Below, piece by piece: positions 1-52,480 of a stretch of DNA of 64,000 nt. Numbering within the stretch: position 1 is the stretch's first letter; each line of letters opens with the position of its first letter. A program made the position numbers and the translations under genes. This stretch comes from Candidatus Giovannonibacteria bacterium RIFOXYD1_FULL_48_21 (GTDB taxonomy: Bacteria > Patescibacteriota > Minisyncoccia > JACPKW01 > UBA11713), in the NCBI GenBank assembly GCA_001778985.1, contig MFIU01000001.1:50111-114110 (forward strand). The letters run 5' to 3'. The notes beneath the pieces were generated by a model, which saw nothing but the letters and a program-made list of their open reading frames with translations, searched no databases and was not told the origin of the DNA.

Positions 1-1881
<1,881 letters not shown>

Positions 1882-1914
1882 TATCTTAATTTTTAGTACA
1901 CAAAGGAGGGGATA

Positions 1915-2178
1915 ATGTTCACGCAAGCGAATGCGGCTGAAGTTTTGTTCGAGAGCGTAAAAAGCAAGGTTGAGAGAGTAAATATCACGAAGGTTAAACA
2001 GATATTCTGTCTTAAACACACAGACTACCGCATCGAGCTTGAAAGGTTGGGGAACGAACTCAGAATAGGGAACGTGGACTGGCAGTTTTGGTCCAGGCGC
2101 TTGACTACTCTGATGCAAACCCTAGGATGCGACGAATGCATCTACTTTCTAGCTCAAAAGTTCAAAGGGACGGGATAG
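1915..2178 (+). CDS. Hypothetical small protein
   Basis: 87-aa ORF with a strong Shine-Dalgarno sequence (aaaggagggg) 5 nt upstream of the ATG. No recognisable family. Confidence 0.4.
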   Translation: MFTQANAAEVLFESVKSKVERVNITKVKQIFCLKHTDYRIELERLGNELRIGNVDWQFWSRRLTTLMQTLGCDECIYFLAQKFKGTG

Positions 2179-2202
2179 ACGTCCCTTTGCTATAATTAAA
2201 CT

Positions 2203-2904
2203 ATGATTTACCCCTACACCGCGACACTGCATGGGGTGATGGCAATCTTGTGTCTAGCGAGTCTCACCCACCTTTTCCGCCGCAAAAAATATGCTGCAAG
2301 CGAAACCGTCCGCGCCTGGTTTAACTGGTTTTTATTATTTTTTCTCTACAACCTAATCCTAGCGGTGCCGCTTGTAATTTTAGAGAAATTGGATCTTCGG
2401 AGCGGAATTTTTTATAACGTCGCCCTCGCCTTTCTAGCGCTCGCCGTCTGGCAGGCCTTTAATATCGCCATACAGATAGGAATCACGGACGAGAAGAGGA
2501 GGAAGGCGTTTTCGTTTCTTTTCATTGCCGGCGCCTCTCTGGCAGTACTTCTGCATTTTGCTTTCCCTGAAATTCCTACAGGCACGCCGAACGGAAAATG
2601 GGTACTTTGGTACTCTAGCCAGCCGATTTCGCTTTCGTATACCTTCTTTATGTTCGTGGCCGGGTGGACTTTTGCCTGGGTTCATTTCAAAGGAATGACC
2701 TATCTTTCCTCTCCGCTTCTGCGCTTGCGGTCTCTTGCCTTCGCGCTCGGAGCATTCGTCCTGCCTTTTTCGGCCTTCTATTACTTCGGTGCCCAGAAAC
2801 TCCAGCATATTTACCTGGGCTTCTCATTCTCTATAATTGGGCTTATCTTCTTTGCGTTGGGAAATATGACCATAGGAGTCGTAAAGACGGGGCGGGAATC
2901 TTGA
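2203..2904 (+). CDS. Hypothetical polytopic membrane protein
   Basis: 233-aa ORF with several hydrophobic helices. A tataat-like -10 sits just upstream. Confidence 0.5.
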
Positions 2905-2956
2905 CTGCGAAAAGTTTCGGGATTATACTTACGGCATATTCATGGAGGAAGAATCT

Positions 2957-3601
2957 ATGACTTATCTGATTCCGACCGTAATTGAAAAATCCCAATTCGG
3001 GGAGCGGGCCTACGATATTTATTCGAGGCTTTTGAAAGAACGGATAATTTTCTTGGGCGGGCCCATCGTGGATCCGGTGGCCAACACCGTAATCGCCCAG
3101 CTTTTGTTTCTGGAACACGAGGACCCTAAAAAAGACATTCATTTTTATATAAATTCTCCGGGCGGCTCGGTTTCGGCGGCTTTGGCCGTCTATGATGCCA
3201 TGCAGTACGTCAAGCCGGACGTTTCCACAATCTGCGTGGGGTTCGCGGCCTCTGCCGCGGCTATTTTGCTGGCCGCTGGCGAGAAAGGAAAGCGCTACGC
3301 TCTGCCTAACTCCGAAGTGATGATTCATCAGGTCTTTGGACAGGCCGAAGGACAAGCCTCGGATGTAAAAATAACCGCGGACCACATTGTTCACATAAAA
3401 GATAAGATAAATAAAATCCTCGCTAAGCACACCGGACAGCCTCTCTCCAAAGTGGAGAGAGATGCCGACCGGGATTTTTACATGGATGCCATAGACGCCA
3501 AGGAATACGGAATCGTGGACCAAATAATCAAAGCCAAAAGCGGAGGGCTTCCGATTGATAAAAGAGAAAATAAAGAAAGAGAAAAAGTTGCGGCGAAGTA
3601 G
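2957..3601 (+). CDS. clpP: ATP-dependent Clp protease proteolytic subunit
   Basis: Strong ClpP similarity ([21 protein letters not shown]...[46 protein letters not shown]). Start placed at the second ATG (2957), which has GGAGG 7 nt upstream; the ORF track starts at 2942. Lys-rich C-terminal tail. Confidence 0.9.
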
Positions 3602-3706
3602 AAAGCCGTAAGTAGGAGAGGTCTCCCCAGTCCCTCCTTCTGGGGACCCCGCCTCTGGTGGGGATAACGGCCTTGTGCCTAAGACCCCTCTTACTTCCGG
3701 TTTTTT

Positions 3707-3772
3707 ACCCCGTTAGAAACGCCGAAGATATTTCGGCCAGGCGTCTATTCGGCGCCTGGTTTCTAACGGGGT
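3707..3772 (+). terminator. Structured element between the convergent clpP and gpmI genes. A 14-bp outer stem (ACCCCGTTAGAAAC / GTTTCTAACGGGGT) encloses two 6-bp hairpins and is followed by TTATTTT. It probably acts as a terminator. It belongs to the repeated clamp family described in the findings.
   Basis: Base pairing read directly: 3707-3720 pairs with 3759-3772. Inner hairpins are gccgaa/ttcggc and caggcg/cgcctg. T-rich 3' flank. Confidence 0.6.
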
Positions 3773-3780
3773 TTATTTTC

Positions 3781-5328
3781 CTAAAGTCTTTCAATTAAAC
3801 TCACGCCGTTCATCTCTGGCGGTTGAGTAAGGTTTAAGAGTTCGAGCACGGTCGGAGCCACGTCGCTTAAAACGCCCCCGACTTCCTCGTAGAGCTTATA
3901 AATTTCTTCCTGGCTTCGCGGTTTTTTCCTCTGAAATTTTTTCCCAATCAGAAAAAAAGGCACCGGATTCGCGGTATGCTTGGTGCTTTTTTCGCCGGTA
4001 AGGCGGTGTCGCTTCTCTTCGGCGTTGCCGTGATCCGCGGTGATAATCGCGACCCCGTCCGCCTCTAAAACTTTTTTAACTATTTTCCCGACCTCCGTAT
4101 CCAGAATTTCGAGCGCCTGGACCGTGGCGTCAAAATCGCCGGTATGGCCTACCAAGTCGGCGTTCGCGAAATTCACCAAAATAAAATCGTAGCGGGCCAG
4201 ATTGTCTATAACGCTCTGGGTAATCTGGGACGCGGACATGGCCGGGTTCTTCTCGTAGCGCGAGCCTGGCAAAGACGGCACCAAAATCCGCTCTTCGCCC
4301 GGATAAGGATTTTCTTTGCCGCCGTCAAAAAAATAGGTAACGTGGGCGTACTTGTCGGTCTCGGCGATATGAAGCTGTGAAAGTCCTTTCTCCGAAAGGA
4401 TTCTGGCCAAAGGCCAAGAAACGTCCATCGGCTCGAAGGCCGCCTCGACCGGAAGATTTTTCTGGTATTCGGTCATGGTCACGAAAACTAAATTTTCCAG
4501 CTTTTCTCTGGGAAATTTATCAAACCCGGTTTCGGCGAAGACTTGGGTGAGCTCGCGCGCCGAATCTTCCCTGAAATTGAAAAATATTACGGCGTCATTC
4601 TTCTTGATTCGTGACCCTGGATCTCCGTCCCAGGCTGGTTCAACAAATTCATCCGTAATTCCTTTCTCGTATTGGGATTCAAGATATTCAACCGGGGAGG
4701 CAAGCAAACTCCCCTCGCCCCTCGCAAGCAGAGCGTGGGTTTTCTCAATTTTCGCCCAATCGCCATCCCGGTCCATGGCGAAATCTCGCCCGATTATCGA
4801 AACGATTTTGGCGAAAGGATAAAGTTTGGACAAACGTTCCCTAAACTCCTTCAAAAAAGTTCCGGCCTCTTTGGGCGGCGCGTCCCGGCCGTCCGTGAAA
4901 AGATGCAGATAAACCCGGGGGAGATTTTCAAGTTTAGCGAATTCCAAAAGCGCGTAAAGATGGTCGGGATAGGCGTGGACCGAGCCGGAAGAGAAAAGAC
5001 CTATCAGATGCAGAGCTCCGGCGGTTTTTTTTACGTGTTCCGCGGCTTTTTTAAAAGCCTTATTTTCAAAAAAGGTTTTGTCCTGAATGGAAACCGAGAT
5101 TCTGGGAAGATGATGATAAAGGGTTTTCCCGGCGCCCAAGGTCAAATGCCCTACTTCGGAATTTCCCTCCTCACCCCAGGGAAGACCGACCGCGATGCCC
5201 GAGGCTTGCAAAGTGGTGAAAGGGAAAAATTTTTCGAGATACTCAAAATTATCTCTCTTTGCCTCCCAAAAAGTCGAGTCTTTCGAACTCGGCACCCCCA
5301 GCCCGTCCAGAATAATCAAAACCACCAT
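3781..5328 (-). CDS. gpmI: 2,3-bisphosphoglycerate-independent phosphoglycerate mutase
   Basis: 515 aa. N-terminal MVVLIILDGLG..., metal-binding ADHGN and other iPGM motifs. Confidence 0.9.
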   Translation of the reverse strand: MVVLIILDGLGVPSSKDSTFWEAKRDNFEYLEKFFPFTTLQASGIAVGLPWGEEGNSEVGHLTLGAGKTLYHHLPRISVSIQDKTFFENKAFKKAAEHVKKTAGALHLIGLFSSGSVHAYPDHLYALLEFAKLENLPRVYLHLFTDGRDAPPKEAGTFLKEFRERLSKLYPFAKIVSIIGRDFAMDRDGDWAKIEKTHALLARGEGSLLASPVEYLESQYEKGITDEFVEPAWDGDPGSRIKKNDAVIFFNFREDSARELTQVFAETGFDKFPREKLENLVFVTMTEYQKNLPVEAAFEPMDVSWPLARILSEKGLSQLHIAETDKYAHVTYFFDGGKENPYPGEERILVPSLPGSRYEKNPAMSASQITQSVIDNLARYDFILVNFANADLVGHTGDFDATVQALEILDTEVGKIVKKVLEADGVAIITADHGNAEEKRHRLTGEKSTKHTANPVPFFLIGKKFQRKKPRSQEEIYKLYEEVGGVLSDVAPTVLELLNLTQPPEMNGVSLIERL

Positions 5329-16395: not shown

Positions 16396-16419
16396 GTTTT
16401 AGCTTATTTTATCGAATTG

Positions 16420-16490
16420 TCGGAGCGCCGAGATTCGAACTCGGGCTGCATGCTCCCAAAGCATGCGTGCTACCACTACACCACGCTCCG
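16420..16490 (-). tRNA. tRNA-Pro (anticodon TGG)
   Basis: Manual fold: acceptor cggagcg/cgctccg; anticodon stem gcatg/catgc with loop tttggga (T33, G37); T-arm with ttcgaat; no encoded CCA. Confidence 0.8.
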
Positions 16491-16492
16491 TC

Positions 16493-16861
16493 CTACTCTA
16501 AAATTATATTCTTAGTCCAACGTATTTTAGCCTTTTTTGCCTCTAAATCAAGGAAAACCGCCATCATATCTATCTGCCATTCAGCTTCTTCATATTCAGG
16601 GTGTTCCAAAAGCCAGGTCTGGATAGCCCTCCAAAGCCGTCTTTGTTTCCAGCTGTGGATATTGTCTTCTGGATGAACTCTTAAATCAGACGCGCCCTTT
16701 ACTTCAATAAAATGCAAAATATTGCTATTTTTCGCGACAATGTCAAGTTCGCCCCATTTTTTCCGATAATTTCTATCTATAATATCGAAATTTCTACTTG
16801 TCAAGTGCTTTGCCGCTATTTTCTCGCATATATCACCAAATTTTCGCTTTTCTGAAGGCAT
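16493..16861 (-). CDS. yraN: YraN/UPF0102 family endonuclease-like protein
   Basis: 122 aa with UPF0102-like core (GELDIVAKNSNILHFIEVKG). Confidence 0.75.
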   Translation of the reverse strand: MPSEKRKFGDICEKIAAKHLTSRNFDIIDRNYRKKWGELDIVAKNSNILHFIEVKGASDLRVHPEDNIHSWKQRRLWRAIQTWLLEHPEYEEAEWQIDMMAVFLDLEAKKAKIRWTKNIILE

Positions 16862-16863
16862 AT

Positions 16864-16983
16864 ATGTTTCACGTGAAACATCACAATATGTTTCACAGAT
16901 GTTTCACAAGATATTTTTGTAAAAAATGAATAGATAAATGTTTCACAATGTTTCACAAAATTATCAATATGTTTCGCGTGAAA
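16864..16983. promoter_or_regulatory. Array of repeated (A)TGTTTCAC half-sites: six direct copies and two inverted arms, including the perfect 18-bp palindrome ATGTTTCACGTGAAACAT. It lies immediately upstream of the yraN start.
   Basis: Direct copies at 16864, 16888, 16899, 16938, 16948 and 16968 (the last is ATGTTTCGC). Inverted arms at 16873-16881 and 16977-16983. Spacings of 10, 11, 20, 24 and 39 bp. The region is AT-rich. Confidence 0.6.
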
Positions 16984-17515
16984 CTTTTTTATATATTTCA
17001 TAACACGCCATAGCATCTGCCAAGGCCGTATGGTGGTTTTCGAGCTTTATGCCTAATTTCTGACAGATTGCGCTAAGACCAGAATCATTCCAGTCATATC
17101 CCATTTTAGCTACAACATAGGAATGAACGTCCAAAGTCCGCCTGTGGAAATCCAGTGGAATACCTGTCTTTGTTACTGCCGCATCCAAAAAGGAGTAATC
17201 GGCAAATGGCACAAAACCAGCTAAAATTGTGCCCTTAGACTTTTCAGATAGAAGTTCCATCGCTTGCTTCAGACTAATTGCGCCCCCCCATGTTTCTTGT
17301 TTATAACCGCTTATTTTAAGGGATTCTGGGTCAGCTGTTTCGAGATGTTCTGGTATTATCTTGGCCTCCCATGTTTCTATTATTTCAAGCTCGGGCTGGG
17401 AAGCCTTAATCAGCCCAATCTCGATTATTTCGTGCTTGGCTGACTCAAGTCCGGTCATTTCCAAATCAATAAAGGAGATTGGGGCGTTTTTGGTATCAAA
17501 TTCTTTGCCTTTCAT
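16964..17515 (-). CDS. DEDD-family 3'-5' exonuclease (DnaQ/epsilon-like)
   Basis: Exo I motif FIDLEMTGL and a C-terminal HTALADAMACYEIY motif. Confidence 0.8.
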   Translation of the reverse strand: MKGKEFDTKNAPISFIDLEMTGLESAKHEIIEIGLIKASQPELEIIETWEAKIIPEHLETADPESLKISGYKQETWGGAISLKQAMELLSEKSKGTILAGFVPFADYSFLDAAVTKTGIPLDFHRRTLDVHSYVVAKMGYDWNDSGLSAICQKLGIKLENHHTALADAMACYEIYKKVSRETY

Positions 17516-26784: not shown

Positions 26785-27054
26785 ATGTTGCCCGCATCTT
26801 TAAGGCCTCTTTTTTGGTCTTACGAGTTTGAAAAGCTTAACTTGGAAAAGGATGGACCTCTTATTATCCGACAAGTCATAAATTACGGGAGGTGGGAAGA
26901 TTGGAAGTGGCTTTTAAAAAATTACGGCAGGGGAAAAGTCAAAAAAACCATTCAAGCCACGCCGGCTTCCGGTTTCCGGCCCCAAGCCCTGAAACTCATT
27001 ACCCTTCTCCTAGGAGCGGCGGAACCAAAATATGCATCCAGAAGCACTCGCTGA
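26785..27054 (+). CDS. Small protein encoded upstream of, and overlapping, the nucleotidyltransferase gene. Candidate antitoxin-like partner.
   Basis: 89 aa. 23-nt overlap with the downstream gene. No recognised fold. Confidence 0.45.
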   Translation: MLPASLRPLFWSYEFEKLNLEKDGPLIIRQVINYGRWEDWKWLLKNYGRGKVKKTIQATPASGFRPQALKLITLLLGAAEPKYASRSTR

Positions 27055-27649
27055 AAGCGCGCGAATTCTCCTGCCTCGCCTGGGCGGAATAGATAATTTT
27101 TACCTGGCTGGAGGGAGTGCGTTAGCGCTTCAAATCGGGCACCGCCTTTCAGAGGATTTAGATTTTTTTTCTGACAGCAAAATTAAAAAAACCCTGCTCC
27201 CGAAAATTGAGAAAATTCTTGAAGGAGGGACGGCGAGAACGGGGGTGAACAACTCCGGGGAACTTACTTTGGTGTCAGGTTCAATAAAAATTACGTTTCT
27301 CCATTATCCTTTCCCCCTTCTTTTCCCATTACTAAATTACAAAGGAATCCGTTTGGCAAACATCAGAGAAATTGCCTGCATGAAGGCCTACACGATTGGA
27401 AGGCGCGGGAGCTTCAAGGACTACGTGGACATTTATTTCGTACTCAAAGAAGGGCTTGAAAAGATTGAGAACATCATTGCCGATGCCCGGAGAAAATATA
27501 CCGAAGCGTTTGACGCCAGGCTTTTTTTGGAACAACTTCTTTATCTCGAAGATATCCAGGATATGGAAATAAAGTTTCTAAAAAGCCGCATTGGGAGAGA
27601 AGAGATAAAAAATTTTTTCCAGAAAAAGATTAAAGCGATAAAGCTCTAG
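27032..27649 (+). CDS. Possible nucleotidyltransferase of the AbiEii/DUF1814-like toxin family
   Basis: Glycine-rich NTase-like head LAGGSALALQIGHRLSEDLDFF. 205 aa. Paired with an overlapping small upstream ORF. Confidence 0.55.
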   Translation: MHPEALAESARILLPRLGGIDNFYLAGGSALALQIGHRLSEDLDFFSDSKIKKTLLPKIEKILEGGTARTGVNNSGELTLVSGSIKITFLHYPFPLLFPLLNYKGIRLANIREIACMKAYTIGRRGSFKDYVDIYFVLKEGLEKIENIIADARRKYTEAFDARLFLEQLLYLEDIQDMEIKFLKSRIGREEIKNFFQKKIKAIKL

Positions 27650-39695: not shown

Positions 39696-40634
39696 GTGAA
39701 GTATTTACCGAGCCCAAGAATTTTAGGCTTTTTTGTCATAATTTCAGCCCTCGCCGGGGTGGGGTGGTTTTGGTATTTTTCTCCTTCTTCGAACAAAAGC
39801 GAGGTCTATGAAAACGGCGCCTTGACAGCCGGGTCCGTAAATAAAATCACGGCAGACGCTGACGGCGACGGGCTGCAAGACTGGGAAGAGGTTTTATGGA
39901 AAACCGACCCCAAAAACCCGGATTCTGACGGAGACGGCATATTTGATGGCGACGAAACAAGGCCAGCAAACAATCTAAAAGCCGCCATTTCAGAAAAACT
40001 TCCCGAAGAGCCGAACCTGACCGAAGCCTTCTCTGGAGCTTTCGCGCGCTCAATCGGCCCGAGAATTCTGGAAGAAGGCGGGCTGTCCGGCATATCCGCC
40101 GCCGATCTGCAGGGGATCGCAGGCTATCTCCCGAGTTCGGATTCGCTGCTGCCTGAACCTGAAAAAATAACGAGCGACGACATAATTATCTCTGAGAAAA
40201 ATGACAATACTGCGGTTAAAAAATATTTTTCGGATCTCTTTTCCGTCTACGAAAAAACTTTCTACACGCTCACAGAAGACGATTTCTCTATACTGGAGCG
40301 CGCCTTTCGGGAAGAAAATTTCAGCGAACTCGCCAAGATTGACGAAATCATAAATGTTTTTGAAAAAAGTTTTCAGGGAGTGAAAAAACTTCCCGTGCCC
40401 GGGGGTTGGGAAAATTTCACGATAAAAGAACTTGGCTATATTCTGCGCACCAAACAGATTTTGGAAAAAATCAGGGGCGCGGGCCAAGATCCTCTCTCCG
40501 CGCTGATTTTGCTTCCGAAGCGAGTAGAACTTATGAACGAGGTTAATAAATTTCACAAAGAAACCGGAGAACTTCTTAAAGATAAGGGAATAACTTTCAG
40601 CGAGAGCGAAGGGGCTTATAAAATTTTCCATTAA
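39696..40634 (+). CDS. Membrane-anchored secreted protein with Ca-binding-like Asp-rich repeats. First gene of the T4SS-like cluster.
   Basis: N-terminal TM helix, then DADGDGLQDWEE...DPKNPDSDGDGIFDGDE (thrombospondin-type-3-like DxDxDG). TATAAT at 39683 and GGGTGA upstream. Confidence 0.55.
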   Translation: MKYLPSPRILGFFVIISALAGVGWFWYFSPSSNKSEVYENGALTAGSVNKITADADGDGLQDWEEVLWKTDPKNPDSDGDGIFDGDETRPANNLKAAISEKLPEEPNLTEAFSGAFARSIGPRILEEGGLSGISAADLQGIAGYLPSSDSLLPEPEKITSDDIIISEKNDNTAVKKYFSDLFSVYEKTFYTLTEDDFSILERAFREENFSELAKIDEIINVFEKSFQGVKKLPVPGGWENFTIKELGYILRTKQILEKIRGAGQDPLSALILLPKRVELMNEVNKFHKETGELLKDKGITFSESEGAYKIFH

Positions 40635-40636
40635 GC

Positions 40637-41914
40637 ATGGGCGGTTTTTCAGAAAAATACAAAAAATTTTTATCGATCTCTGCCATAGTTTTGATTTTAT
40701 CATCCGCCTTCTTTCCGTTTTCCAAGGCGCAGGCCATCGTTCCTGTTTTTGACGCTCCGGCAAATGTACTTCTAGGAACTATAAGCGGCTTTACGGGTTC
40801 GACGGCCGGTTTCACGGGAAGCTTAGTAGCCAAAGAATTCGGCTTCGATTCAATTGCTTGGCTCGTGGGAAAAGCTTTACTCCGAACCATCACCACGCAA
40901 ATTGTCAACTGGATTAAAACCGGTGACACCAGGGGGCCTTTGTTCGTGGAAAATTTTCTGGAGCATTTCTCGCGCGAAATGGACAACGCCGTGGGACTTT
41001 TCTTGGAGCAATATTTCGGCAGGAACTCCCAGCTTTTGGGGCTTTTATGCAGTCCGTTTCGCCTGACCCTGCCGCAACTTCTGGGCGTGCACCGCAGGTC
41101 CCAAGACTTCACCCAGCAGGCGCGCTGTAAGCTCTCGGACATCGTCAGAAACGTCGAGAATTTTAACGTTAACTTGTATTTCAACGACTTTTCGCACGGC
41201 GGCTGGGACGCCTGGTTCGCGATGCTGGAGCCGGAACACAATATGTTCGGGCAATATCTGACGGGCGTTTCTCGGCTTGAACGAGAGCGCGCCAGCGCAT
41301 TTTTCGCAGGCCAAACCGAAGCTCAGACTACCGGCGGCGGGCTTTTGTCCTGGCAGGAATGCGAAACCATCGCGATTCCGAGCCCAGACGGCATTGTCGC
41401 GGACGAAAGATTAAGACAAAACTGCAAAATTATGACGCCCGGCAAACTGGTTGAAGATTCTCTGGCGAACGCTTTTGGCTCGGGCATTAAACAATTGGAG
41501 CTTGCAGACGAGCTGAACGAAATCCTGGTCGCCTTCTTCCAGCTCTTGATAGACCAAATTCTTTCGCAAGGATTTTCAAGAACAAACCCAGGCACCATTA
41601 CTCCGCCTCCGGCGCCTCTTTTTGACTATTATCTTTTGACAAACGGGAGTATCAACGTAACTCGCGGAGCTTCGGGTTCTAATACGATTACCCGCGTGCT
41701 TATTTCCGGCACGCCGGCCGTCGTAAGTGTCGCGGCCTCGGGGCTTCCGGCTGGGACTACGGCCTCTTTCACCAACAACCCCTGCACAGTGCCCTGCGCC
41801 AGCGCCCTTACCATCAGCACGGCGTCAAGCACGCCTGACGGAAGTTTTTCTATTACAGTCACTGGCTCTCCCTTAAATAGGACCGCCACTTTCAGTCTAA
41901 TTGTTTCGCCATGA
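40637..41914 (+). CDS. Hypothetical secreted protein (425 aa)
   Basis: Signal peptide, with a C-terminal Ig-like Thr/Ser-rich region. Confidence 0.55.
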   Translation: MGGFSEKYKKFLSISAIVLILSSAFFPFSKAQAIVPVFDAPANVLLGTISGFTGSTAGFTGSLVAKEFGFDSIAWLVGKALLRTITTQIVNWIKTGDTRGPLFVENFLEHFSREMDNAVGLFLEQYFGRNSQLLGLLCSPFRLTLPQLLGVHRRSQDFTQQARCKLSDIVRNVENFNVNLYFNDFSHGGWDAWFAMLEPEHNMFGQYLTGVSRLERERASAFFAGQTEAQTTGGGLLSWQECETIAIPSPDGIVADERLRQNCKIMTPGKLVEDSLANAFGSGIKQLELADELNEILVAFFQLLIDQILSQGFSRTNPGTITPPPAPLFDYYLLTNGSINVTRGASGSNTITRVLISGTPAVVSVAASGLPAGTTASFTNNPCTVPCASALTISTASSTPDGSFSITVTGSPLNRTATFSLIVSP

Positions 41915-43875
41915 GAAACGTCTTTTTCCGAAAATTTATAGTAGCGCTTCTCATCCTGGGATTTTTTGTTATGTTTTTCGCGCCGCGCGCGAGTTTCGCG
42001 CAACCAAGCATAACATCAAACCTTTCTGGGTGTTCTTGGGGGGTTTTTTCTGTGCTTAATGACATAAACTGCCTCGCCTTTCCGGTAGCATATATACTCG
42101 ATTTTGTATTCACTTTTGTCGGTTGGTTTTTTGTGGGCATTTTAGGAAATATTTTTAGCTACACTTTAGGTTTGACGATTAACAACGGGTTATATCAAAA
42201 CATTGAACCGATAGCGACCGGCTGGGCTTTCACGCGCGATGTTGTAAACATATTTTTCATATTCGCGCTTCTTTTCATAGCCATCGCGACCATTCTTGGA
42301 ATCGAATCTTACGGAGTCAAAGCTTTACTGCCGCGGCTCATAATAATCGCCTTACTGGTAAACTTTAGTCTATTGGCGACTCAAGCAATCATTTTTGTTA
42401 CCAACGCCCTAGCATACGAACTTTACAGCGTTGTTACGGTAACGGGCGTCTCCTCCAAAATTCTTTCAAACTACGCTCAGCCTGGATTCAATCGTGATAT
42501 CGCGGGAGCTATCATGCAGGGCATCGGGCAACAGAGATTATTTAACGTCAATCCCTCGGGGCTTCAGCCGGGCTCTAGCGCTCCCCCAACCAGCGCCGCC
42601 CAGGTTAATATTGCCGTGATTGTGACCCTTGGGGCCTCTATATTCATAATGGCATTTGCCGGCTTTATATTTTTGGCGGGGTCATTTTTCTTCATTGTCC
42701 GAATGGCAACTTTATGGCTCTTGATGGTGCTCGCTCCTTTTGGCTTTGTCTTCTTAATTCTTCCCGCAACCAAAGGTTATGCCCAGAAGTGGTGGACCAC
42801 GCTTCAATCCCAAGCTTTATTCGCGCCCGCCTTCATGTTCTTTATAATAATTACCGTAAAAATGTCCAACGCGGATCTATTCGGAATAGTAAGAAGAATA
42901 AATAGTAATCCCAACATGGGCGCGACCGATCTCATTTTTCTTTTGATTATTCAAAGCACTGTTATTTTTCTTCTGCTGGGCGGCTCACTTATCATCGCCA
43001 AAACTCTCGGCATCTATGGCGCCGGAGCGGCGATAGGCATGGCCGCCGGCGCCGGCAAGGCGTTCAGGGGGTATGTGGGGAAGGGGGCGCTTAGGATGGG
43101 AGCGCTACCTGCCCGCGGACTAAACAAATTAGCTACGGCACCCGGAAGAATTCCATATGCCGGCCCCGTTTTCCGTGCATTACTTAAACCGCTAACTGCC
43201 GCTACGGGCGCGGCCGTAAGAGTAACGGATAAAGAAAAAACCGAACGCCAAGAAAGCTGGAAAAAACTTTCTCCTATTGCGCTTGCCGAAACATATCGTG
43301 GCGCAGTAAATCCGTTAACGCGAAAGGAAATACTGAAAGCTGCGGGAGAGTCTGGAAAATTAGATAAATTTAGTGAGGGTGAACTGCAAACAGCTTACAG
43401 TCAATTTAAAGATAAGCCGGCGGATGCAAGGGCCTACAATAATGTCGTAAAAGCAAGGCCGGACTTAATCGAAAAAGATAGTTCTCTTTCGCCCGCCGAT
43501 AAACGAACACGAATGACCGACGCATTGAGCAGGATGTCAGAAAAAGATATCGAAGAAAAACTGGATAAGAAAACTTTTGATCCAGCCAATGCCTTGACAC
43601 AAGAGTTGATGGTACTGACGTGGGGAGAAAGAGAAATGACCGCAGCCATCAGAAAACACGGAGAAGCAGCCAGAAATGCTGTAAACCAATCACTCGCTAC
43701 AATGGGGCCACCAGATGTTCAGTTCCGCAACTTATACGACAACAATAAAAGTTTCATCAAAGGTCTTTTCAGAAATCCAGCCCTTGCGCTTCAATTCGGC
43801 GTACTTAGAACTAACATGGAGAGAGCGGCAGCGCGGGCATATCCTGATTGGGAACATAGATTAGGAATTACATAA
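41911..43875 (+). CDS. Polytopic membrane protein, candidate VirB6/TrbL-like channel component
   Basis: 654 aa. Signal peptide, then at least six TM helices, then a hydrophilic C-terminal extension. Architecture only. Confidence 0.5.
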   Translation: MRNVFFRKFIVALLILGFFVMFFAPRASFAQPSITSNLSGCSWGVFSVLNDINCLAFPVAYILDFVFTFVGWFFVGILGNIFSYTLGLTINNGLYQNIEPIATGWAFTRDVVNIFFIFALLFIAIATILGIESYGVKALLPRLIIIALLVNFSLLATQAIIFVTNALAYELYSVVTVTGVSSKILSNYAQPGFNRDIAGAIMQGIGQQRLFNVNPSGLQPGSSAPPTSAAQVNIAVIVTLGASIFIMAFAGFIFLAGSFFFIVRMATLWLLMVLAPFGFVFLILPATKGYAQKWWTTLQSQALFAPAFMFFIIITVKMSNADLFGIVRRINSNPNMGATDLIFLLIIQSTVIFLLLGGSLIIAKTLGIYGAGAAIGMAAGAGKAFRGYVGKGALRMGALPARGLNKLATAPGRIPYAGPVFRALLKPLTAATGAAVRVTDKEKTERQESWKKLSPIALAETYRGAVNPLTRKEILKAAGESGKLDKFSEGELQTAYSQFKDKPADARAYNNVVKARPDLIEKDSSLSPADKRTRMTDALSRMSEKDIEEKLDKKTFDPANALTQELMVLTWGEREMTAAIRKHGEAARNAVNQSLATMGPPDVQFRNLYDNNKSFIKGLFRNPALALQFGVLRTNMERAAARAYPDWEHRLGIT

Positions 43876-43879
43876 AGAA

Positions 43880-44548
43880 ATGATGACGGATGTAGAAAAA
43901 AATTTTTACCAACTCCTAGAAAAACTTCCGAAGGATTTGCAAAATGCTATCTCGGGCGTGGATACTGCTGACGCTATCGAAAGCATCGCGAAGAAATACT
44001 CTCTACTTATCGACAAAATGGGTATTTTGGCCGAGGAGACTGGCTTAGTGATGCTGGGCATTACCCATCCAAAAGATTTTATCTCAAATCTTTCGCAGAA
44101 GCTCGGCGTGGACCGCGAAACCGCGAGAAAAATCGCCGAAGATATAAATCAGCAGATTTTTCAGAAAGTGAGAGAAAGTTTGCGGAAAATACACGGAATC
44201 AAAGAAGAAGCTCCGAGCATTTCGTCTGTTTCTCCTGTTTCGCCGGTATCCAAACCTCCTCCTCCCTTGCCCGCCGAAGCCTTGGCGAAGGCGGGGCCGT
44301 CAGTTTCCCAACCGCCAAAAAAGGAAATTCCCAAAGAAGAAATACGTCCACTGGAAATCCGCCCGATGAAAAGTTTCGCCGAAGAAACTAAAAAAGAAAT
44401 CAAACTTGCCGAGCCCGTGAAACCGGTGCCGCAGCTTGAAAAAATAAAAGTTATGCCTGTAGAAAAGGCGGCGCCGCCTCCAAATCTGCCGATTGCCGAC
44501 GAAAAAATAAAGAAAAAGTTCGACCCGTATAGAGAACCAATGAAGTAA
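43880..44548 (+). CDS. Hypothetical protein with a Pro-rich C-terminal half
   Basis: 222 aa (SPVSPVSKPPPPLPAEALAKAGPSVSQPPKKE). Confidence 0.5.
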   Translation: MMTDVEKNFYQLLEKLPKDLQNAISGVDTADAIESIAKKYSLLIDKMGILAEETGLVMLGITHPKDFISNLSQKLGVDRETARKIAEDINQQIFQKVRESLRKIHGIKEEAPSISSVSPVSPVSKPPPPLPAEALAKAGPSVSQPPKKEIPKEEIRPLEIRPMKSFAEETKKEIKLAEPVKPVPQLEKIKVMPVEKAAPPPNLPIADEKIKKKFDPYREPMK

Positions 44549-44550
44549 CC

Positions 44551-44970
44551 ATGTACCAATTTCAAGTGCCGCAATTCATAGAAGTGGAGGATAAAATTTT
44601 CGGGCCACTGACCCTGAAGCAGTTTTTGTACGTTTTGGGCGGCGGTTCCATAATTTTCCTCCTCTACGTCTTCTTGCCGTTTTTTCTGATGGTGCTTTTT
44701 GCCGCGCCAGTGGCGGTTCTCTTTGGAGCCCTCGCTTTCTACAAAATAAACGGCCAGCCTCTTGTAAAAATTTTGGAAGGGGCGCTTGAACACTATACCC
44801 GCTCGAGGCTTTTCATTTGGAAAAAGGTGGAACGTCCTAGAAAAACATCGGATGTTTCTCATTCAACATCCGATGTTGGAAAGACCGGCCTCTTTCTCCC
44901 CAAACTTACCGAGTCGAAATTAAAAGAATTAGCCTGGTCGCTGGATATCCAACATGGCAAACGCAGTTAG
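44551..44970 (+). CDS. PrgI/VirB3-like small membrane protein
   Basis: N-terminal EVEDKIFGPLTLKQFLYVLGG followed by two TM helices. Sits directly upstream of the VirB4-like genes. Confidence 0.55.
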   Translation: MYQFQVPQFIEVEDKIFGPLTLKQFLYVLGGGSIIFLLYVFLPFFLMVLFAAPVAVLFGALAFYKINGQPLVKILEGALEHYTRSRLFIWKKVERPRKTSDVSHSTSDVGKTGLFLPKLTESKLKELAWSLDIQHGKRS

Positions 44971-45610
44971 CGCCAAGAGCGCGCAAGAGTTTGTCCCGAT
45001 TCAGGAGATTCGGGAAGGGGTGGCGATTTTAAAAGACGGGGCTTTGCGAATGATTCTGATGGCCTCCTCGCTTAACTTCGCGCTCAAATCCGCGGACGAG
45101 CAGGAGGCGATTATTCTGCAGTACCAAAATTTTCTGAACTCGCTCGATTTCACGGTTCAGTTTTTCATCCAGTCCAGAAAGCTCAACATCAATCCCTATC
45201 TGGACACGCTCCGGGAAGCCGAGAAAAATCAGGTAAACGAGCTTCTTAAAATTCAGACTCGGGAATATATCGAGTTCATAAAGAATTTCGTGGAAGCTTC
45301 AAACATCGTTACCAAAGCTTTCTACGCCGTGGTGCCTTACCAGCCGCCGGTTTTCACCTCGGCCAAAGAAGCGGCCGGAACGATTATGGGAATTTTCAAG
45401 AAGAAAGACGAATCTCCGGTCGGGCTCTCGGACGAAAAATTTGAAGAATACAAAACCCAGCTTTTCCAAAGAGTAGATACGGTCGCGCAGGGCTTGACGC
45501 GTTCCGGAGTCAGGGTCGCGCCCTTGAACACCGAGGAGCTGATTGAGCTTTATTACTCGCTCTTTAATCCCGGGGAGCTTGAAAAAGGCAAAGCCCCGGA
45601 AGTGGGATAA
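44954..45610 (+). CDS. VirB4/TraC-family protein, N-terminal domain only, encoded as a separate ORF
   Basis: FVPIQEIREGVAILKDGALRMILMASSLNFALKSADEQEAIILQYQNFLNSL matches the N-terminal region of Gram-positive-type VirB4 (PrgJ/TcpF-like). Ends with TAA 5 nt before the next ATG. Confidence 0.6.
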   Translation: MANAVSAKSAQEFVPIQEIREGVAILKDGALRMILMASSLNFALKSADEQEAIILQYQNFLNSLDFTVQFFIQSRKLNINPYLDTLREAEKNQVNELLKIQTREYIEFIKNFVEASNIVTKAFYAVVPYQPPVFTSAKEAAGTIMGIFKKKDESPVGLSDEKFEEYKTQLFQRVDTVAQGLTRSGVRVAPLNTEELIELYYSLFNPGELEKGKAPEVG

Positions 45611-45615
45611 AAAAG

Positions 45616-47427
45616 ATGGCGTTCTTCAGAAAAAAACAACCAGAAAAAGAGCCGGAAATTTTATCGGTTTTCCCGCAGGACATTTACGAGGCCGGAGTTT
45701 TGGAGCTTCAGGATGTCATCGCGCCCGCGGCCCTTGAGATAAATTCCAACTTCATAAAGCTCGGAGAAAAAGTGGCGCGCACTCTTTTCATCTTCGCCTA
45801 TCCCAGATACCTCGCGGTCAACTGGTTTTCGCCCATTATCAATCTGGATAAAGTTTTCGACGTTTCTATTTTTATCCATCCCTTGGATACCGGCGCCGCG
45901 CTCCGCCAGCTTCAGAAAAAAGTGGCCGAGGTGCAATCCCAGATTCATCTGCGGGAGGAGAAGGGGCTCGTGCGCGACCCGATGCTCGATACGGCGCACC
46001 AGGACCTGGAAGCGCTTCGGGACAAACTCCAGCAGGCTCAAGAAAAACTTTTCTCATTCGGGCTTTATCTAACGATTTACGCCGACAGCCCGGAAGAACT
46101 GAATAAAACCGAAACAGAAATCCGCTCCATTCTGGAATCCAAGCTGGTCTACGCCAAACCGGCTCTGTTCCAGCAGGCTCCAGGGCTCGAGAGCGTCTTG
46201 CCGCTCGGCACGGACAAGCTCGAAGTCAACACCAAGCTTAATTCCTCTCCCATCTCCTCGCTTTTTCCCTTTATCTCTTTTGACCTGACTTCCAATAAGG
46301 GCATTCTCTACGGAATCAACCGCCACAATTCTTCTTTGGTTCTTTTTGACCGCTTTTCGCTCGAGAATTACAACTCCGTGGTCTTCGGCAAGGCCGGCGG
46401 CGGCAAAAGTTACGCCGTGAAATTGGAAATTCTCCGCTCGCTGATGCTGGACACCGATGTCATTGTGATTGACCCGGAGCGGGAGTATGAATATCTGGCC
46501 GAAACCGTGGACGGCAGATATTTCAATATCTCCCTCACCTCTCACCACCATATAAATCCTTTTGACCTGCCGCCGCCCCGCGAAGACGAATCTCCAGCCG
46601 ACGTTTTGCGCTCGAACATCATAAACCTGGTGGGGCTTTTGAGAATCATGTTCGGGGGCCTCACTCCGGAAGAAGACGCGATTTTGGACCGGGCCATCAC
46701 TGAAACCTATGCCTCGAGGGATATCACGCCGGAATCTGATTTTTCAAAAATAAATCCGCCGATTCTCTCGGATTTAGAGCTGGTCTTGGCAAATATGGAA
46801 GGCGGCGAATCTTTGGCCCAGCGCTTGAGAAAATACACTCAAGGAACTTGGGCCGGGTTCATCAACCAGCCCACGAACGTGGATATAAATAAGAAGCTCG
46901 TAGTCTTCTCGGTGAGAGATATGGAAGACGAACTTCGTCCCATCGCGATTTATCTGATTATCCACCATGTCTGGAACACGGTCCGAGCTTCTCTGAAAAA
47001 ACGGCTCCTGATAGTGGACGAGGCCTGGTGGCTCATGAAAACCGAGGACGGCGCTTCCTTTCTCTTCGGCATCGCCAAGCGCGCGAGAAAATACTACCTG
47101 GCCCTCTCCACCATCACCCAGGACGTGGGCGATTTTCTGAACTCGCCCTACGGAAAATCAATCATCACCAACTCCTCCTTACAGCTTTTGTTAAAACAGG
47201 CTCCGGCCACGATTGACTTGGTTAAAGAAACTTTCAATCTTACGGATGAAGAAAAGTTTTTGCTCCTGGAATCGGACGTGGGCGAAGGAATCTTTTTCGC
47301 GGGATTGAAGCATATCGCGATTAAAATTTTGGCTTCCTACACCGAGGACCAGATAATAACCTCCGACCCTTCCCAGCTTTTGGCGATTAAAAAGGCGAAA
47401 GAAGAGTATCAAAAAGCTAATTTGTAA
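45616..47427 (+). CDS. VirB4/TraC/CagE-family conjugation/secretion ATPase, C-terminal ATPase part
   Basis: Walker A GKAGGGKSY and Walker B LLIVDEAWW. 603 aa. Confidence 0.75.
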   Translation: MAFFRKKQPEKEPEILSVFPQDIYEAGVLELQDVIAPAALEINSNFIKLGEKVARTLFIFAYPRYLAVNWFSPIINLDKVFDVSIFIHPLDTGAALRQLQKKVAEVQSQIHLREEKGLVRDPMLDTAHQDLEALRDKLQQAQEKLFSFGLYLTIYADSPEELNKTETEIRSILESKLVYAKPALFQQAPGLESVLPLGTDKLEVNTKLNSSPISSLFPFISFDLTSNKGILYGINRHNSSLVLFDRFSLENYNSVVFGKAGGGKSYAVKLEILRSLMLDTDVIVIDPEREYEYLAETVDGRYFNISLTSHHHINPFDLPPPREDESPADVLRSNIINLVGLLRIMFGGLTPEEDAILDRAITETYASRDITPESDFSKINPPILSDLELVLANMEGGESLAQRLRKYTQGTWAGFINQPTNVDINKKLVVFSVRDMEDELRPIAIYLIIHHVWNTVRASLKKRLLIVDEAWWLMKTEDGASFLFGIAKRARKYYLALSTITQDVGDFLNSPYGKSIITNSSLQLLLKQAPATIDLVKETFNLTDEEKFLLLESDVGEGIFFAGLKHIAIKILASYTEDQIITSDPSQLLAIKKAKEEYQKANL

Positions 47428-47429
47428 AT

Positions 47430-47879
47430 ATGGCTGAAGCAGCTGCAATTGAGAATGCAGAACAAATGGAAGCGGAGCGAAGTATGAAGCTCCAGGAATC
47501 GCGCCTGAGAGCAAGGATTTCCAGAAGCGCCAAGGCTCAAGTGGCGGCCGGAGTCAAAATAGGTTTAGCGGCGGCATTTTTGATGCTTGGTTTTGCTGGT
47601 ATGCTGGATTTAGTAGACTGGCTCGGGGTAGGGTCGATTCCTCTGATCGGAGATATTCTGGACATATTTGGCGGCTTGGTCATTTACTTCTGGGTAAAAA
47701 TTAAGGGTCTTGATCAGAAAAAACCCTGGTACATTTCATGGCTAGCCGGCGGAGGAACGTTAGTGGAACTGATACCGGGCGGAGATATTCTTCCTTCATA
47801 TATTTTGACGGTCCTAGTAATCATAATCGTCAATACCTCGTGGGGTCAAAGATGGGCAAAGTTTCTCTCGCCAATATGA
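47430..47879 (+). CDS. Hypothetical membrane protein (149 aa)
   Basis: Charged N-terminus followed by three hydrophobic helices. Confidence 0.5.
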   Translation: MAEAAAIENAEQMEAERSMKLQESRLRARISRSAKAQVAAGVKIGLAAAFLMLGFAGMLDLVDWLGVGSIPLIGDILDIFGGLVIYFWVKIKGLDQKKPWYISWLAGGGTLVELIPGGDILPSYILTVLVIIIVNTSWGQRWAKFLSPI

Positions 47880-48874
47880 AATTTTGGATTTTAAATATAA
47901 TTTATATAATATTAGGAATATTGCTACTGCCAGCTCTTTCCGCCCAGGCCCAGCTTAGACTTCCGGGAGGGGCAAGCCTTTCCATAAAAATTTCTCCGGA
48001 ATTTCCGGATCCCGGAGCAGAAGTAAGGGCGGAGCTTCTCTCTTATAGTCTTGACGTGAACCGGGCCAGTATCACCTGGGCGCTCGACGGAAAAGCGCTG
48101 GCAAGCGGCGTTGGGGTTAAAGAAGTTTCGTTCAAAGCGGCCGCTCATGGTGCAAAAAATACTTTAAGCGCGAGTGCGACGAGCCCGGGCGGCGAAAGAT
48201 TCGAAACTTCGGTCGTTATCCGGCCTCAATCTGTGGACCTGATTCTTGACGCGAAAAGCCGCGTACCTCACTGGTACCGGGGCGCCGCGCTTCCCATTTC
48301 AAGAACCAGGGTGGTGGTGAGCGCGATTCCTAATTTCATCTCCAGCGGCGCCAGAATCAATCCTTCTTCCCTGCAATATGAATGGAGGGTTGACCGCCGA
48401 TTGATATCGGACTTTTCAGGGCGCGGCAAAGACAGCATTTCGGTTTTGACTCCGGGTCTAGGTGAAGTCGCCAAAGAAGTCATGGTCAAAGTAAGTTCGT
48501 CTGACGCTAGCTTGGTCAAAGAGGCGCGCGCGATGGTTCAGGCTTTTTCTCCAGAGATTCTTTTTTATGAGCGGCTGCCCCTCGAAGGAATTAAAACCTC
48601 TTTGGCCTTAAGGACTAAAAATCTTTTCGCCGGAGGCGAGTTCGAAGTCCAAGCCGTGCCTTTTTCCATGAATTACTCCTCTCTCTCTGACCTAAGTTTC
48701 TCCTGGAGCTTTGACGGCAACGCTACCGACCCCCTCTCTGGAGAGCCGGACACGCTCCTCGTAAAAACCGGTGGCGGCTCCGAGGGCCAATCGGGTTTGA
48801 TAGGAATCTTGGTATCAAATCTTAAAACTTTATTCGAATCGGTAAACGCGTCTTTCGATGTCAATATCCAGTAA
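47876..48874 (+). CDS. Hypothetical secreted protein
   Basis: Start set at MKFWILNIIYIILGILLLPALSAQA (a signal peptide). The ORF track's 47738 start overlaps the previous gene. Confidence 0.5.
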   Translation: MKFWILNIIYIILGILLLPALSAQAQLRLPGGASLSIKISPEFPDPGAEVRAELLSYSLDVNRASITWALDGKALASGVGVKEVSFKAAAHGAKNTLSASATSPGGERFETSVVIRPQSVDLILDAKSRVPHWYRGAALPISRTRVVVSAIPNFISSGARINPSSLQYEWRVDRRLISDFSGRGKDSISVLTPGLGEVAKEVMVKVSSSDASLVKEARAMVQAFSPEILFYERLPLEGIKTSLALRTKNLFAGGEFEVQAVPFSMNYSSLSDLSFSWSFDGNATDPLSGEPDTLLVKTGGGSEGQSGLIGILVSNLKTLFESVNASFDVNIQ

Positions 48875-49436
48875 AAAAATAATTTTATTTGCGGCCCTGC
48901 TTCTGATTTTGGGAGCGTCAAACGTTCAGGCGCTTGAAATCACGGCTGGAGCTTCAGCGCAGCCTCCTAATGATTTTCTAAGCTACGCAAAATTTCTCTA
49001 TCCGTTCGCGCTTTCCGTGGCCGCGGTCTTGGCGGTAATCATGATAATAATCGCCGGGCTTGAAATGATGACCGCTTCCGAGGGCCTTCGCGAAGACGCC
49101 AAGAAAAAAATCTGGGGCGCGGTTCTGGGGCTTTTGCTTGCAGTCGGCTCCTTTCTGATTTTACGCACTATAAATCCGCAGCTGATAAATTTAAATATAG
49201 ACACGAGCAGATTAGAAGTCATCACCCCAATCACCCCAGGTCCTGGACCGGGGCCAGGCGGTGTAGCTGACTGTATCGTAGATGGAAGGACATTTGAACT
49301 GACTAGAGCGCAATGCGCTTCTCACGGTGGCTGTTTTAAGAGTGGACGTATATTTGAGCTAACTAAAGCACAATGTGATTCTCACCAAGGTTGTTTTATC
49401 GGAACAGTCGGGAGTATAGGCGACTGCCACATATAA
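48858..49436 (+). CDS. Pilin-like protein (TrbC/VirB2-like topology) with a Cys-rich duplicated C-terminal motif
   Basis: Signal peptide, then two TM helices separated by TASEGLREDAKKK, then two copies of (T/I)FELT(R/K)AQC(A/D)SH(G/Q)GCF. Confidence 0.5.
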   Translation: MSISSKKIILFAALLLILGASNVQALEITAGASAQPPNDFLSYAKFLYPFALSVAAVLAVIMIIIAGLEMMTASEGLREDAKKKIWGAVLGLLLAVGSFLILRTINPQLINLNIDTSRLEVITPITPGPGPGPGGVADCIVDGRTFELTRAQCASHGGCFKSGRIFELTKAQCDSHQGCFIGTVGSIGDCHI

Positions 49437-49448
49437 GCAATTAAAACT

Positions 49449-50600
49449 ATGCCAAACTTTTTCACAACCAGAAATCTGATAATCGCGGTGGCGGCGCTTT
49501 TGATTGTTGGCGGCGGACTCGTCTGGTATTTGACTTTGCCCAAGGGCGCTGACGAAGAAAGAAAAAGTGCGGCAGAATTTTTCTATGGGCTTTTTCCGGG
49601 AGGAGGCGAGAGAGAACTGACCGAAGCCCCGACGCCTGAAGGGGTCGGGGTCCCGACTCCCGACGCTCTGGGTCGGGACGTCGGGAGAGAAAGTTTTCAG
49701 ATGGTTCAAGAATCTGTTTCCGGCGCAATCGTGGTCAAGGATAAAGTCCGCTACATTGAAAAATCATCCGGGCACGTTTTTGAGATGGGTCTCGACGGCG
49801 GAAATAAACAAAGAATTTCCAACACCACCATTCCCGGAATTTTTGAGGTCATCTGGTCGGGGACCGGTAGCCGCGCGATTTTAAAATATCTTTCCGGAGA
49901 AAAACTGAACATTCTTTCCGCCAATTTTACGGGCTCTTCCACCCAAGGCACGTTTCTCTCGCCGGATATCAAAGACGCGCTTTTTTCTCTAAAAGGAGAC
50001 CGCATCGCTTATGTCATAGAAGCTCCAGACGAAACTCTGGTGATAACCGCGACCCCGGACAATAAAAACCAAACCGTCAGGCTCAGAAGCCCTTATTCTT
50101 CCTGGAAAATTTTATGGCCCGAAGACAATAACATCTACTTATTAACTTCGCCTTCGGCCTATCTGGACGGCTTTCTTTATAGAATAAATTTGGCTTCGGG
50201 CAGCTTTACAAAAATTCTGGGGCCAAAACCCGGACTTTTGGCTTCGTCAAATGGCACTGCCTGGTTTACTTCAGAAGCTGACCTAGACAATAAAACCGTT
50301 ATAAACTCTCTCGCCATTAAAACCTTTCCGGAAAAATGCGTCTGGTCTAAAAAATCTAAAGATATTATATTCTGCGGCGTCCCCTTGTCGTTTCCGGCCG
50401 GAATTTATCCCGACGACTGGTATAAAGGCAAAGTTTCTTTTGATGACGCGATTTTAAAAATTAATTTGAGCGGCTCGGCAAGCTCGGTTTTCACTCCGGA
50501 AAACGCTGAGGTAATCAATCCGGTTTTATCAGAAGACGAAACCCTCCTCTTTTTCATAAATAAGAAAGACGGAACTTTATGGCGCGTCAAGCTGGAATAA
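49449..50600 (+). CDS. Hypothetical membrane-anchored extracellular protein (383 aa)
   Basis: N-terminal TM anchor. Beta-rich repeats suggest a propeller-like fold. Confidence 0.5.
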   Translation: MPNFFTTRNLIIAVAALLIVGGGLVWYLTLPKGADEERKSAAEFFYGLFPGGGERELTEAPTPEGVGVPTPDALGRDVGRESFQMVQESVSGAIVVKDKVRYIEKSSGHVFEMGLDGGNKQRISNTTIPGIFEVIWSGTGSRAILKYLSGEKLNILSANFTGSSTQGTFLSPDIKDALFSLKGDRIAYVIEAPDETLVITATPDNKNQTVRLRSPYSSWKILWPEDNNIYLLTSPSAYLDGFLYRINLASGSFTKILGPKPGLLASSNGTAWFTSEADLDNKTVINSLAIKTFPEKCVWSKKSKDIIFCGVPLSFPAGIYPDDWYKGKVSFDDAILKINLSGSASSVFTPENAEVINPVLSEDETLLFFINKKDGTLWRVKLE

Positions 50601-51751: not shown

Positions 51752-51962
51752 AAAATTTCTTTTGGAAGGGGTGGCATCTCAAAATCCTGAAAAATCCGCG
51801 CTTCAGCCCGTAAAAAACTCCGTGGCGTAAAATTGCCTGGCGGGTATACTCGGAGCAGGTTGGTTCTAAAACGCAAAATTTTCTTCCGGAAGAAAAAATC
51901 CCTTGGTCCGGAGACAGAATGATTTGATAAATTCTGATGAGTTTAGAAAAAAATAATTTCAT
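51735..51962 (-). CDS. yidD: Membrane protein insertion efficiency factor YidD
   Basis: FCVLEPTCSEYTRQAILRHGVFYG, the hemolytic-domain signature. Confidence 0.8.
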   Translation of the reverse strand: MKLFFSKLIRIYQIILSPDQGIFSSGRKFCVLEPTCSEYTRQAILRHGVFYGLKRGFFRILRCHPFQKKFYDPVV

Positions 51963-52368: not shown

Positions 52369-52480
52369 TATCATTCAGTATCCGTCAATATTAACAAAAA
52401 ATCAAGAGTTTATTAACATTCTAATAACGTTGGGAGAAGATAGTAAATTTCTTCCATGAGTATAAGATACTCTTATCACC

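Follow-up and report, generated by a model that had tools for sequence, protein, structure and literature searches.

Within the window analyzed here, a 64,000-bp stretch of chromosomal DNA from an uncultured groundwater member of the CPR/Patescibacteria (Candidatus Giovannonibacteria), a dense array of short repeats at 16864-16983 is probably an origin-proximal chromosomal centromere, i.e., a compact parS cluster for a putative ParB (Spo0J) of this lineage; we put the probability of this reading at roughly 80%. Consensus chromosomal parS, TGTTNCACGTGAAACA, is the loading site of ParB/Spo0J, while GTTTCAC or GTTCCAC constitutes the half-parS heptamer (PMC7022226), which is occupied in vivo by the ParB of P. 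aeruginosa and by a few other ParBs (PMC7022226, PMC10419367). The array matches the consensus at 16 of 16 positions in one dyad (16865-16880) and at 14 of 16 in the other (16970-16985), an identity with the ParB/Spo0J site that went unrecognized in the preliminary description of this region. Four features characterize the array as parS: the match to the 16-bp inverted repeat, the proximity of dnaA-dnaN, the small number of clustered copies, and conservation that is independent of reading frame and promoter. The main element is of a known kind, a textbook parS, and the two dyads bracketing phased half-sites are a modest architectural variant of it. We found no description of parS in CPR bacteria in the searchable literature; the cluster is newly pinned down here for the Giovannonibacteria and Parcubacteria.

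A scan of the whole window recovered six exact copies of TGTTTCAC, all within 16865-16956, with five on the plus strand (starting at 16865, 16889, 16900, 16939 and 16949) and one on the minus strand (16873-16880). The expected number in shuffled versions of the window is 1.1, and none of 100 shuffles contained at least six copies, which bears out the dense array initially described. The start-to-start spacings of the half-sites are 24, 11, 39, 10 and 21 bp. The left-hand dyad (dyad B, 16865-16880) is the perfect consensus parS TGTTTCACGTGAAACA, a 16-mer palindrome with 0 mismatches that lies 3 nt upstream of the ATG of yraN, a minus-strand gene; including the flanking A/T, it forms the perfect 18-bp palindrome with a CACGTG core (16864-16881) that had been noted before. 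Direct pair 2 (16889-16907, plus strand) consists of two copies of TGTTTCAC (16889-16896 and 16900-16907) at 11 bp start-to-start, and pair 1 (16939-16956, plus strand) of two further copies (16939-16946 and 16949-16956) at 10 bp. The two pairs are separated by an AT-rich spacer of 31 bp (16908-16938), the sequence and length of which vary in relatives. The right-hand dyad (dyad A, 16970-16985) is an imperfect parS, TGTTTCGCGTGAAACT, with 2 mismatches (14/16); it overlaps the final codons of the upstream exonuclease gene, specifying C-terminal residues K-V-S-R-E-T-Y, with the stop codon at 16964-16966. The centers of the two dyads are 105 bp apart.

Outside the full palindrome there are four lone exact GTTTCAC heptamers (at 16890, 16901, 16940 and 16950), and outside the cassette the heptamer occurs at chance frequency (7 in 64 kb, with 7.8 expected). 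Across ~81 kb, made up of the window and ~17 kb retrieved past its two ends, neither a further dyad with ≤3 mismatches nor another exact copy of TGTTTCAC was found. The count of eight half-sites given in the preliminary description holds, with the qualification that two of them, TGTTTCGC and AGTTTCAC, are imperfect; similarly, five of the six direct copies of ATGTTTCAC reported there are exact, while the sixth carries a mismatch. The spacing of one or two helical turns applies, as one turn, to the two direct pairs but not to the other intervals, and the placement of the array between the 3' end of the exonuclease gene and yraN is mostly accurate, except that the right-hand dyad is coding rather than intergenic. 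The suspicion that the region might be a misassembled or low-complexity repeat can be set aside: the 160-bp array segment has the same sequence in five independent assemblies and is therefore no assembly artifact.

Read along the minus strand, the locus comprises a strong terminator-like hairpin (17590-17562), a gene for a DnaQ-like 3'-5' exonuclease (RNase_T family based on Pfam; 16964-17515, minus strand), the array, yraN (UPF0102; 16493-16861, minus strand) directly downstream of it, tRNA-Pro(tgg) (16419-16490), an ABC transporter, tRNA-Gly and the F-ATPase operon. The window also contains the origin-region marker dnaA-dnaN (52481-55079, plus strand; dnaA at 52481-53848) at a distance of 35.6 kb from the array, which makes the earlier wording "not near dnaA" misleading. 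GC skew over the 64 kb is uninformative; origin proximity was gauged from dnaA-dnaN. The dnaA-dnaN spacer (53849-53981) is 82% A+T. There is no recognizable DnaA-box cluster in the rpmH-dnaA and dnaA-dnaN spacers (51752-54000), despite the canonical DNA-binding motif of the encoded DnaA, and no canonical DnaA-box cluster occurs anywhere in the 64-kb window; the origin of this CPR chromosome is unrecognizable by the standard box consensus.

For an assessment of conservation, orthologous loci were gathered by protein homology to the exonuclease, which makes the sample unbiased by the presence of the motif. The clade set contains ten strains or species (the window, L006, L008, L014-L019 and L217), whose exonucleases are 60-87% identical to the protein encoded in the window. 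In every one of these Giovannonibacteria-clade loci, a heptamer cluster is present at the same place and is the sole cluster of the locus; the comparison with orthologous regions that the preliminary description had proposed thus shows the array retained at the same spot in all ten. More distant CPR lineages have no cluster near the exonuclease homolog. An alignment of nine of the spacers reveals that only four motif blocks are conserved, with unconserved DNA between them, and that their usual order is dyad A, half-site pair 1, phased direct pair 2 and dyad B.

The individual blocks are retained to different degrees. The dyad B block is kept in 8 of the 9 aligned spacers, and in most Giovannonibacteria it ends 3-8 nt from the yraN ATG. 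Direct pair 2 is spaced at 10-11 bp in L006, L014, L015 and L018 as well, while pair 1 has the tail-to-tail form GTnAAAC.GTTTCAC in most relatives and is direct in the window; adjacent same-orientation half-sites are 10-12 bp apart in 11 of 20 instances in this clade. In L008, about nine half-sites are present but a full dyad is missing. Under a clamp-loading model, the L008 array alone would be a poor loading site, and a full parS may be located elsewhere in the L008 genome. Long-range helical phasing between the dyads was considered and rejected, with a distance of 105 bp in the window versus 71-101 bp in relatives.

Sites also extend into coding DNA. Half-sites occur within the 5' coding region of yraN in L016, L017 and L019; a third dyad is found ~130-145 bp inside yraN in L014, L017 and L019, and extra dyads lie 130-170 bp inside this gene in L014, L019 and the more distant L238. 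Dyad A is coding in some species and follows the stop codon in others (L010, L012), and its conservation is therefore at the DNA level, regardless of reading frame. Because sites have been gained, lost and moved into coding sequence, the comparison indicates that selection acts on the DNA motif itself, rather than on protein sequence or RNA pairing. The dyads in coding DNA repeatedly read V-S-R-E/D-T (window, 16967-16987; L014, 2792-2807; L019, 10787-10802; L238, 10168-10183), in segments that correspond to the exonuclease C-terminus and a variable YraN loop; K-F-L-V-K-H is the reading of a further dyad within yraN. Tolerant protein segments accommodate the centromere sites.

Three loci from more distant Parcubacteria containing yraN (L236-L238) were fetched to separate tracking of yraN from tracking of the locus. 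These share the gene order PNPase, NYN, S15, Xer-type integrase, CCA enzyme, yraN, HU and RNase Y. None of the three has a tight array in the yraN leader; each has 3-6 parS-like dyads (≤2 mismatches) in the cca-yraN neighborhood, where ~0.005 per locus would occur by chance, and these dyads are inside genes (cca, a Mur-ligase-like gene and yraN). Because the dyads of these distant Parcubacteria are intragenic in the same neighborhood, the element belongs to the origin-proximal locus and not to the yraN promoter, as is typical of parS and atypical of an operator.

In L238, yraN is ~8 kb from dnaA and the equivalent parS cluster is 8-10 kb from it. Compared with L238, the block extending from ClpP to a LysM/M23 peptidase (~3-35 kb of the window) is inverted relative to dnaA and, unlike in L238, is split by the F-ATPase operon and the ABC transporter. 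This rearrangement moves the parS cluster from ~8 kb to 35.6 kb from dnaA. The region at 39696-50600 contains mostly unannotated ORFs, including a TraG-like P-loop ATPase and T4SS-pilin-like proteins, and might represent a pilus island, or one related to conjugation, that separates the centromere from dnaA. An AbiEii toxin gene (27032-27649) adjoins the Xer-type integrase gene.

Related arrangements were observed on other CPR-like contigs. Arrays are present upstream of UPF0102 genes on two of these, L222 and L229. The CPR-like contig L221 (G+C 0.30) has 17 full parS dyads in 3.4 kb (953-4351). This ORF-poor stretch follows immediately after genes for an Xer-type integrase and a CCA enzyme and constitutes an unusually dense centromere region. 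A second repeat, TTGCC(A/G)GACT, is present in 3-9 copies beside the parS arrays of three CPR-like contigs (L222, 4285-4870; L229, 2489-3834; L226, ~1000-1100); TTGCCRGACT is at chance level in the 64-kb window. On the metagenomic contig L234 (60-145), a parS dyad and two half-sites are interleaved with two perfect TTATCCACA DnaA boxes, an instance of a parS lying within a likely oriC.

A link to ParB comes from metagenomes. We searched for a composite pattern of a perfect core dyad followed, after 2-30 nt, by two GTTTCAC heptamers 9-12 bp apart (28 specified bases), and found it in 21 metagenomic contigs with G+C contents of 0.30-0.70. In 6 of the 21, the composite is located 23-118 bp upstream of parA-parB (tblastn with B. 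subtilis Soj and Spo0J, E values of 1e-56 to 1e-110): L216 (4686-4800), L219 (1168-1216), L225 (2164-2216), L227 (1141-1189), L228 (10852-10906) and L231 (3970-4081). These six contigs are unrelated (G+C 0.41-0.61) and carry a parS dyad with one or two extra half-sites in the same orientation, frequently as a half-site 11-12 bp from the full dyad ("1.5x parS"). The ParB encoded on L219 has the domains ParB_N, HTH_ParB and ParB_C (Pfam). The Spo0J query was validated by Pfam and was 100% identical to the Spo0J of B. subtilis. Promoter regions of parAB thus seem to feature a dyad with an extra half-site recurrently, an arrangement that we have not found described, and the phased layout extends beyond a single CPR clade.

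Partition genes were also sought in the organism and its relatives. No ParA or ParB is encoded in the window (Pfam, 58 ORFs) or in the adjoining ~7 kb on the left and ~10 kb on the right (~81 kb in total), and tblastn with B. subtilis Spo0J and Soj gave no parAB match in any of the Giovannonibacteria, Parcubacteria and CPR loci fetched. A database-wide Spo0J search returned only Bacillus among the 120 matches listed. For ParB in CPR bacteria or Giovannonibacteria, the searchable literature yielded only a CPR-wide family table, in which the ParB family (PF02195/K03497) is recorded for 1717 CPR and 947 non-CPR genomes and described as "equally distributed" (PMC6744442, Suppl. Data 1); the corresponding numbers for GyrB are 1985 CPR and 1057 non-CPR genomes (PMC6744442). 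We infer that a ParB exists in this organism and that it binds the array; a lineage without ParB, in which a different protein reads the parS motif, is very improbable.

A looser pattern, a dyad plus a single half-site, was found in more than 120 viral contigs (IMG/VR). These contigs (L094-L213) have 2-4 perfect ATGTTTCACGTGAAACA sites arranged in tandem at intervals of 23-35 bp (e.g., L110, 2834-2937; L166, 7464-7530; L095, 5526-5565), and those with Pfam-checked flanking ORFs are phi29-like podoviruses of 8-18 kb. None of the 120 viral contigs listed contains a parB gene. Bacteriophage phi29 exploits the Spo0J of its host through parS sites (PMC2731898). The viral arrays fit this use of host Spo0J and broaden it considerably; since phi29-like arrays lack parB and phi29 relies on the Spo0J of the host, motif arrays can serve a ParB that is encoded elsewhere.

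The array could be read in other ways, and the preliminary description favored an operator or an iteron-like element. As an operator, it would be bound by a dedicated non-ParB transcription factor controlling yraN/tRNA-Pro, with dimers on the dyads and extra protomers on the half-sites. We consider this unlikely, although the array fills the exonuclease-yraN spacer, its dyad ends within 3-8 nt of the yraN ATG in most Giovannonibacteria, arrays precede UPF0102 genes in two other lineages (L222 and L229), and the tail-to-tail pair TGTGAAACGTTTCACA fits TGTGA-N6-TCACA, a CRP-like geometry. A search for the same dyad upstream of other genes, which had been suggested as a means to define a regulon, revealed no second target in ~81 kb. 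In this stretch the motif does not recur in other promoters, and across species it is not tied to one: the dyads of L236-L238 are within the coding DNA of cca, the Mur-ligase-like gene and yraN rather than in a yraN promoter, and those deep inside yraN in L014, L019 and L238 are likewise coding. Moreover, the dyad has exactly the consensus parS sequence, the array has no conserved regulator gene beside it, and a simple scan of the spacer detected no sigma-70-like promoter. It is scarcely credible that the array acts at the RNA level, as a terminator, an attenuator or a protein-binding leader in the exonuclease-yraN transcript. The minus-strand RNA does fold better than shuffled sequences (z = -3.5), but a good fold is the trivial outcome of inverted copies of a single motif. 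There is neither an Rfam family match nor a terminator-like T-tract; relatives keep the motif itself in every copy and in both orientations, rather than maintaining base-pairing via compensatory changes, and the half-sites of pair 1 are direct in some loci and tail-to-tail in others. Searches of Rfam, promoter and terminator scans and folding gave nothing specific.

A DnaA-box cluster, either a true oriC or a datA/DARS-like titrating or reactivating site with TGTTTCACA as the box of this lineage, is also very unlikely. This was evaluated from the flanks of dnaA, the translated DnaA sequence, the cumulative skew, and scans for TTWTNCACA and for TTATCCACA (≤2 mismatches). In its favor, TGTTTCACA departs from the relaxed E. 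coli pattern TTWTNCACA at a single position, gaps of 1-2 bp separate the direct 9-mers, an AT-rich 31-bp stretch lies between the pairs, and no canonical box cluster is visible beside dnaA. However, the canonical GGRDHTT recognition motif is intact in the DnaA of this organism, which leads one to expect a box resembling TTATCCACA, and the array units deviate from it at 3-5 of 9 positions. The C of GTGAAAC, nearly invariant (48 of 51 sites), is at the conserved T/A of the box, and the base 5' of GTGAAAC, where a DnaA box needs T, is more often C than T, L008 included. Relatives do not conserve the AT-rich stretch, which is short; the cumulative GC skew runs straight through the site with no inflection, the flanking genes are co-directional, and two half-sites abut exactly in parS register. 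The array thus offers neither 9-mers close to TTATCCACA nor an AT-rich unwinding element nor a skew switch; no alternative oriC was found, and the initial rejection of an oriC role was reasonable. Even less likely is that the array belongs to an integrated mobile element, as a cluster of iterons or as a ParR-type (type Ib/II) centromere. Direct repeats at ~10-11 bp do resemble parC-type or iteron-type arrays, and the AbiEii toxin gene, an integrase gene and the T4SS-like gene cluster are present elsewhere in the window. Against this, the flanks are housekeeping genes in an order conserved across the Parcubacteria, the integrase is the conserved Xer-type gene of the syntenic block, no rep, parR or parM-like gene is adjacent, and the repeat unit is 7-9 bp instead of 17-22 bp. 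Repeats of 17-22 bp or ~10-11 bp beside rep or parMR genes on a mobile replicon were thus not observed, and the iteron-like interpretation is not supported, there being neither a rep-like gene nor an iteron-sized unit. We disfavor the operator, DnaA-box, RNA and iteron readings. The origin proximity given by the distance of 35.6 kb to dnaA is part of the evidence for a centromere.

The parS cluster resembles known systems in some respects and differs in others. The chromosomal parS sites of B. subtilis, C. crescentus, P. aeruginosa (parS1-4), C. glutamicum and M. xanthus contain the same 16-bp palindrome, TGTTNCACGTGAAACA, and are also few in number and clustered around the origin; many are located within genes, and related species keep them at corresponding positions (PMC7022226). 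In contrast to the full sites distributed over kilobases that are usually described for known chromosomal clusters, the dyads of the window are 105 bp apart, with four same-orientation half-sites between them. The half-parS sites of P. aeruginosa (Kawalek et al.; PMC5961200, PMC10419367) have the same heptamer, GTTTCAC, and binding of ParB to them involves no spreading and is independent of the CTP patch and of dimerization (PMC10419367); by analogy, this non-spreading binding is the behavior that we propose for the lone half-sites of the array. The Pseudomonas half-sites number in the hundreds and are genome-wide, whereas here they are concentrated in one ~120-bp cassette, in phased pairs (10-12 bp) conserved across species; hundreds of dispersed copies are not seen, given the chance-level frequency of the heptamer in the rest of the 64 kb. 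The phi29-family arrays likewise consist of tightly packed consensus sites with no ParB encoded nearby, and their role is spore entrapment and not chromosome segregation (PMC2731898). They differ from the array in being composed of tandem full dyads 23-35 bp apart, with no direct half-site pairs phased at one turn. The architecture is also reminiscent of plasmid centromeres. In the P1 parS (box A/box B) and R1 parC systems, short units in direct and inverted orientation, phased at about one turn, assemble a higher-order partition complex; P1 uses ParB with IHF, and R1 parC uses the ribbon-helix-helix protein ParR. The unit of the present array is instead a chromosomal parS half-site, and both the proteins and the motifs are different.

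Our model of how the cluster might function builds on established ParB biology. The initial proposal of a multi-site binding platform for a dimeric DNA-binding protein was reasonable, and that protein would be ParB, dimers of which would recognize the two head-to-head dyads (the perfect one at 16865-16880 and the imperfect one at 16970-16985). At abutting half-sites, two ParB subunits would clash, leading to N-domain engagement and closure of a CTP-locked clamp, such that the dyads would act as loading sites from which the closed ParB clamp could slide onto flanking DNA. The resulting partition complex would be the substrate for ParA and/or SMC. Between the dyads, the four half-sites share one orientation and the members of each pair are a helical turn apart; these lone half-sites would be unable to close the clamp, and most likely each statically holds a single DNA-binding domain of ParB, with the bound protein on one face of the helix. 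Such static binding could raise the local ParB concentration, or anchor or bridge the complex. With only 3 nt between dyad B and the start codon of yraN, ParB bound there would probably also damp expression of yraN and tRNA-Pro. That the phased same-orientation half-parS pairs are an undescribed functional module of ParB centromeres, static docking sites that would tune nucleation, retention or bridging, is a tentative suggestion from the layout of the sites, and we hold it with considerably less assurance than the identification of the cluster as parS.

If correct, these results would locate the chromosomal centromere of the Giovannonibacteria and related Parcubacteria, ultra-small uncultured bacteria whose cell cycle has barely been studied. 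The parS cluster would then serve as a practical landmark of the origin-proximal domain in CPR genomes that have no recognizable DnaA-box clusters. Furthermore, the ~120-bp cassette would provide a natural, evolutionarily validated template for testing the role of half-parS sites in ParB loading, retention and bridging, a question left open by the work on Pseudomonas.
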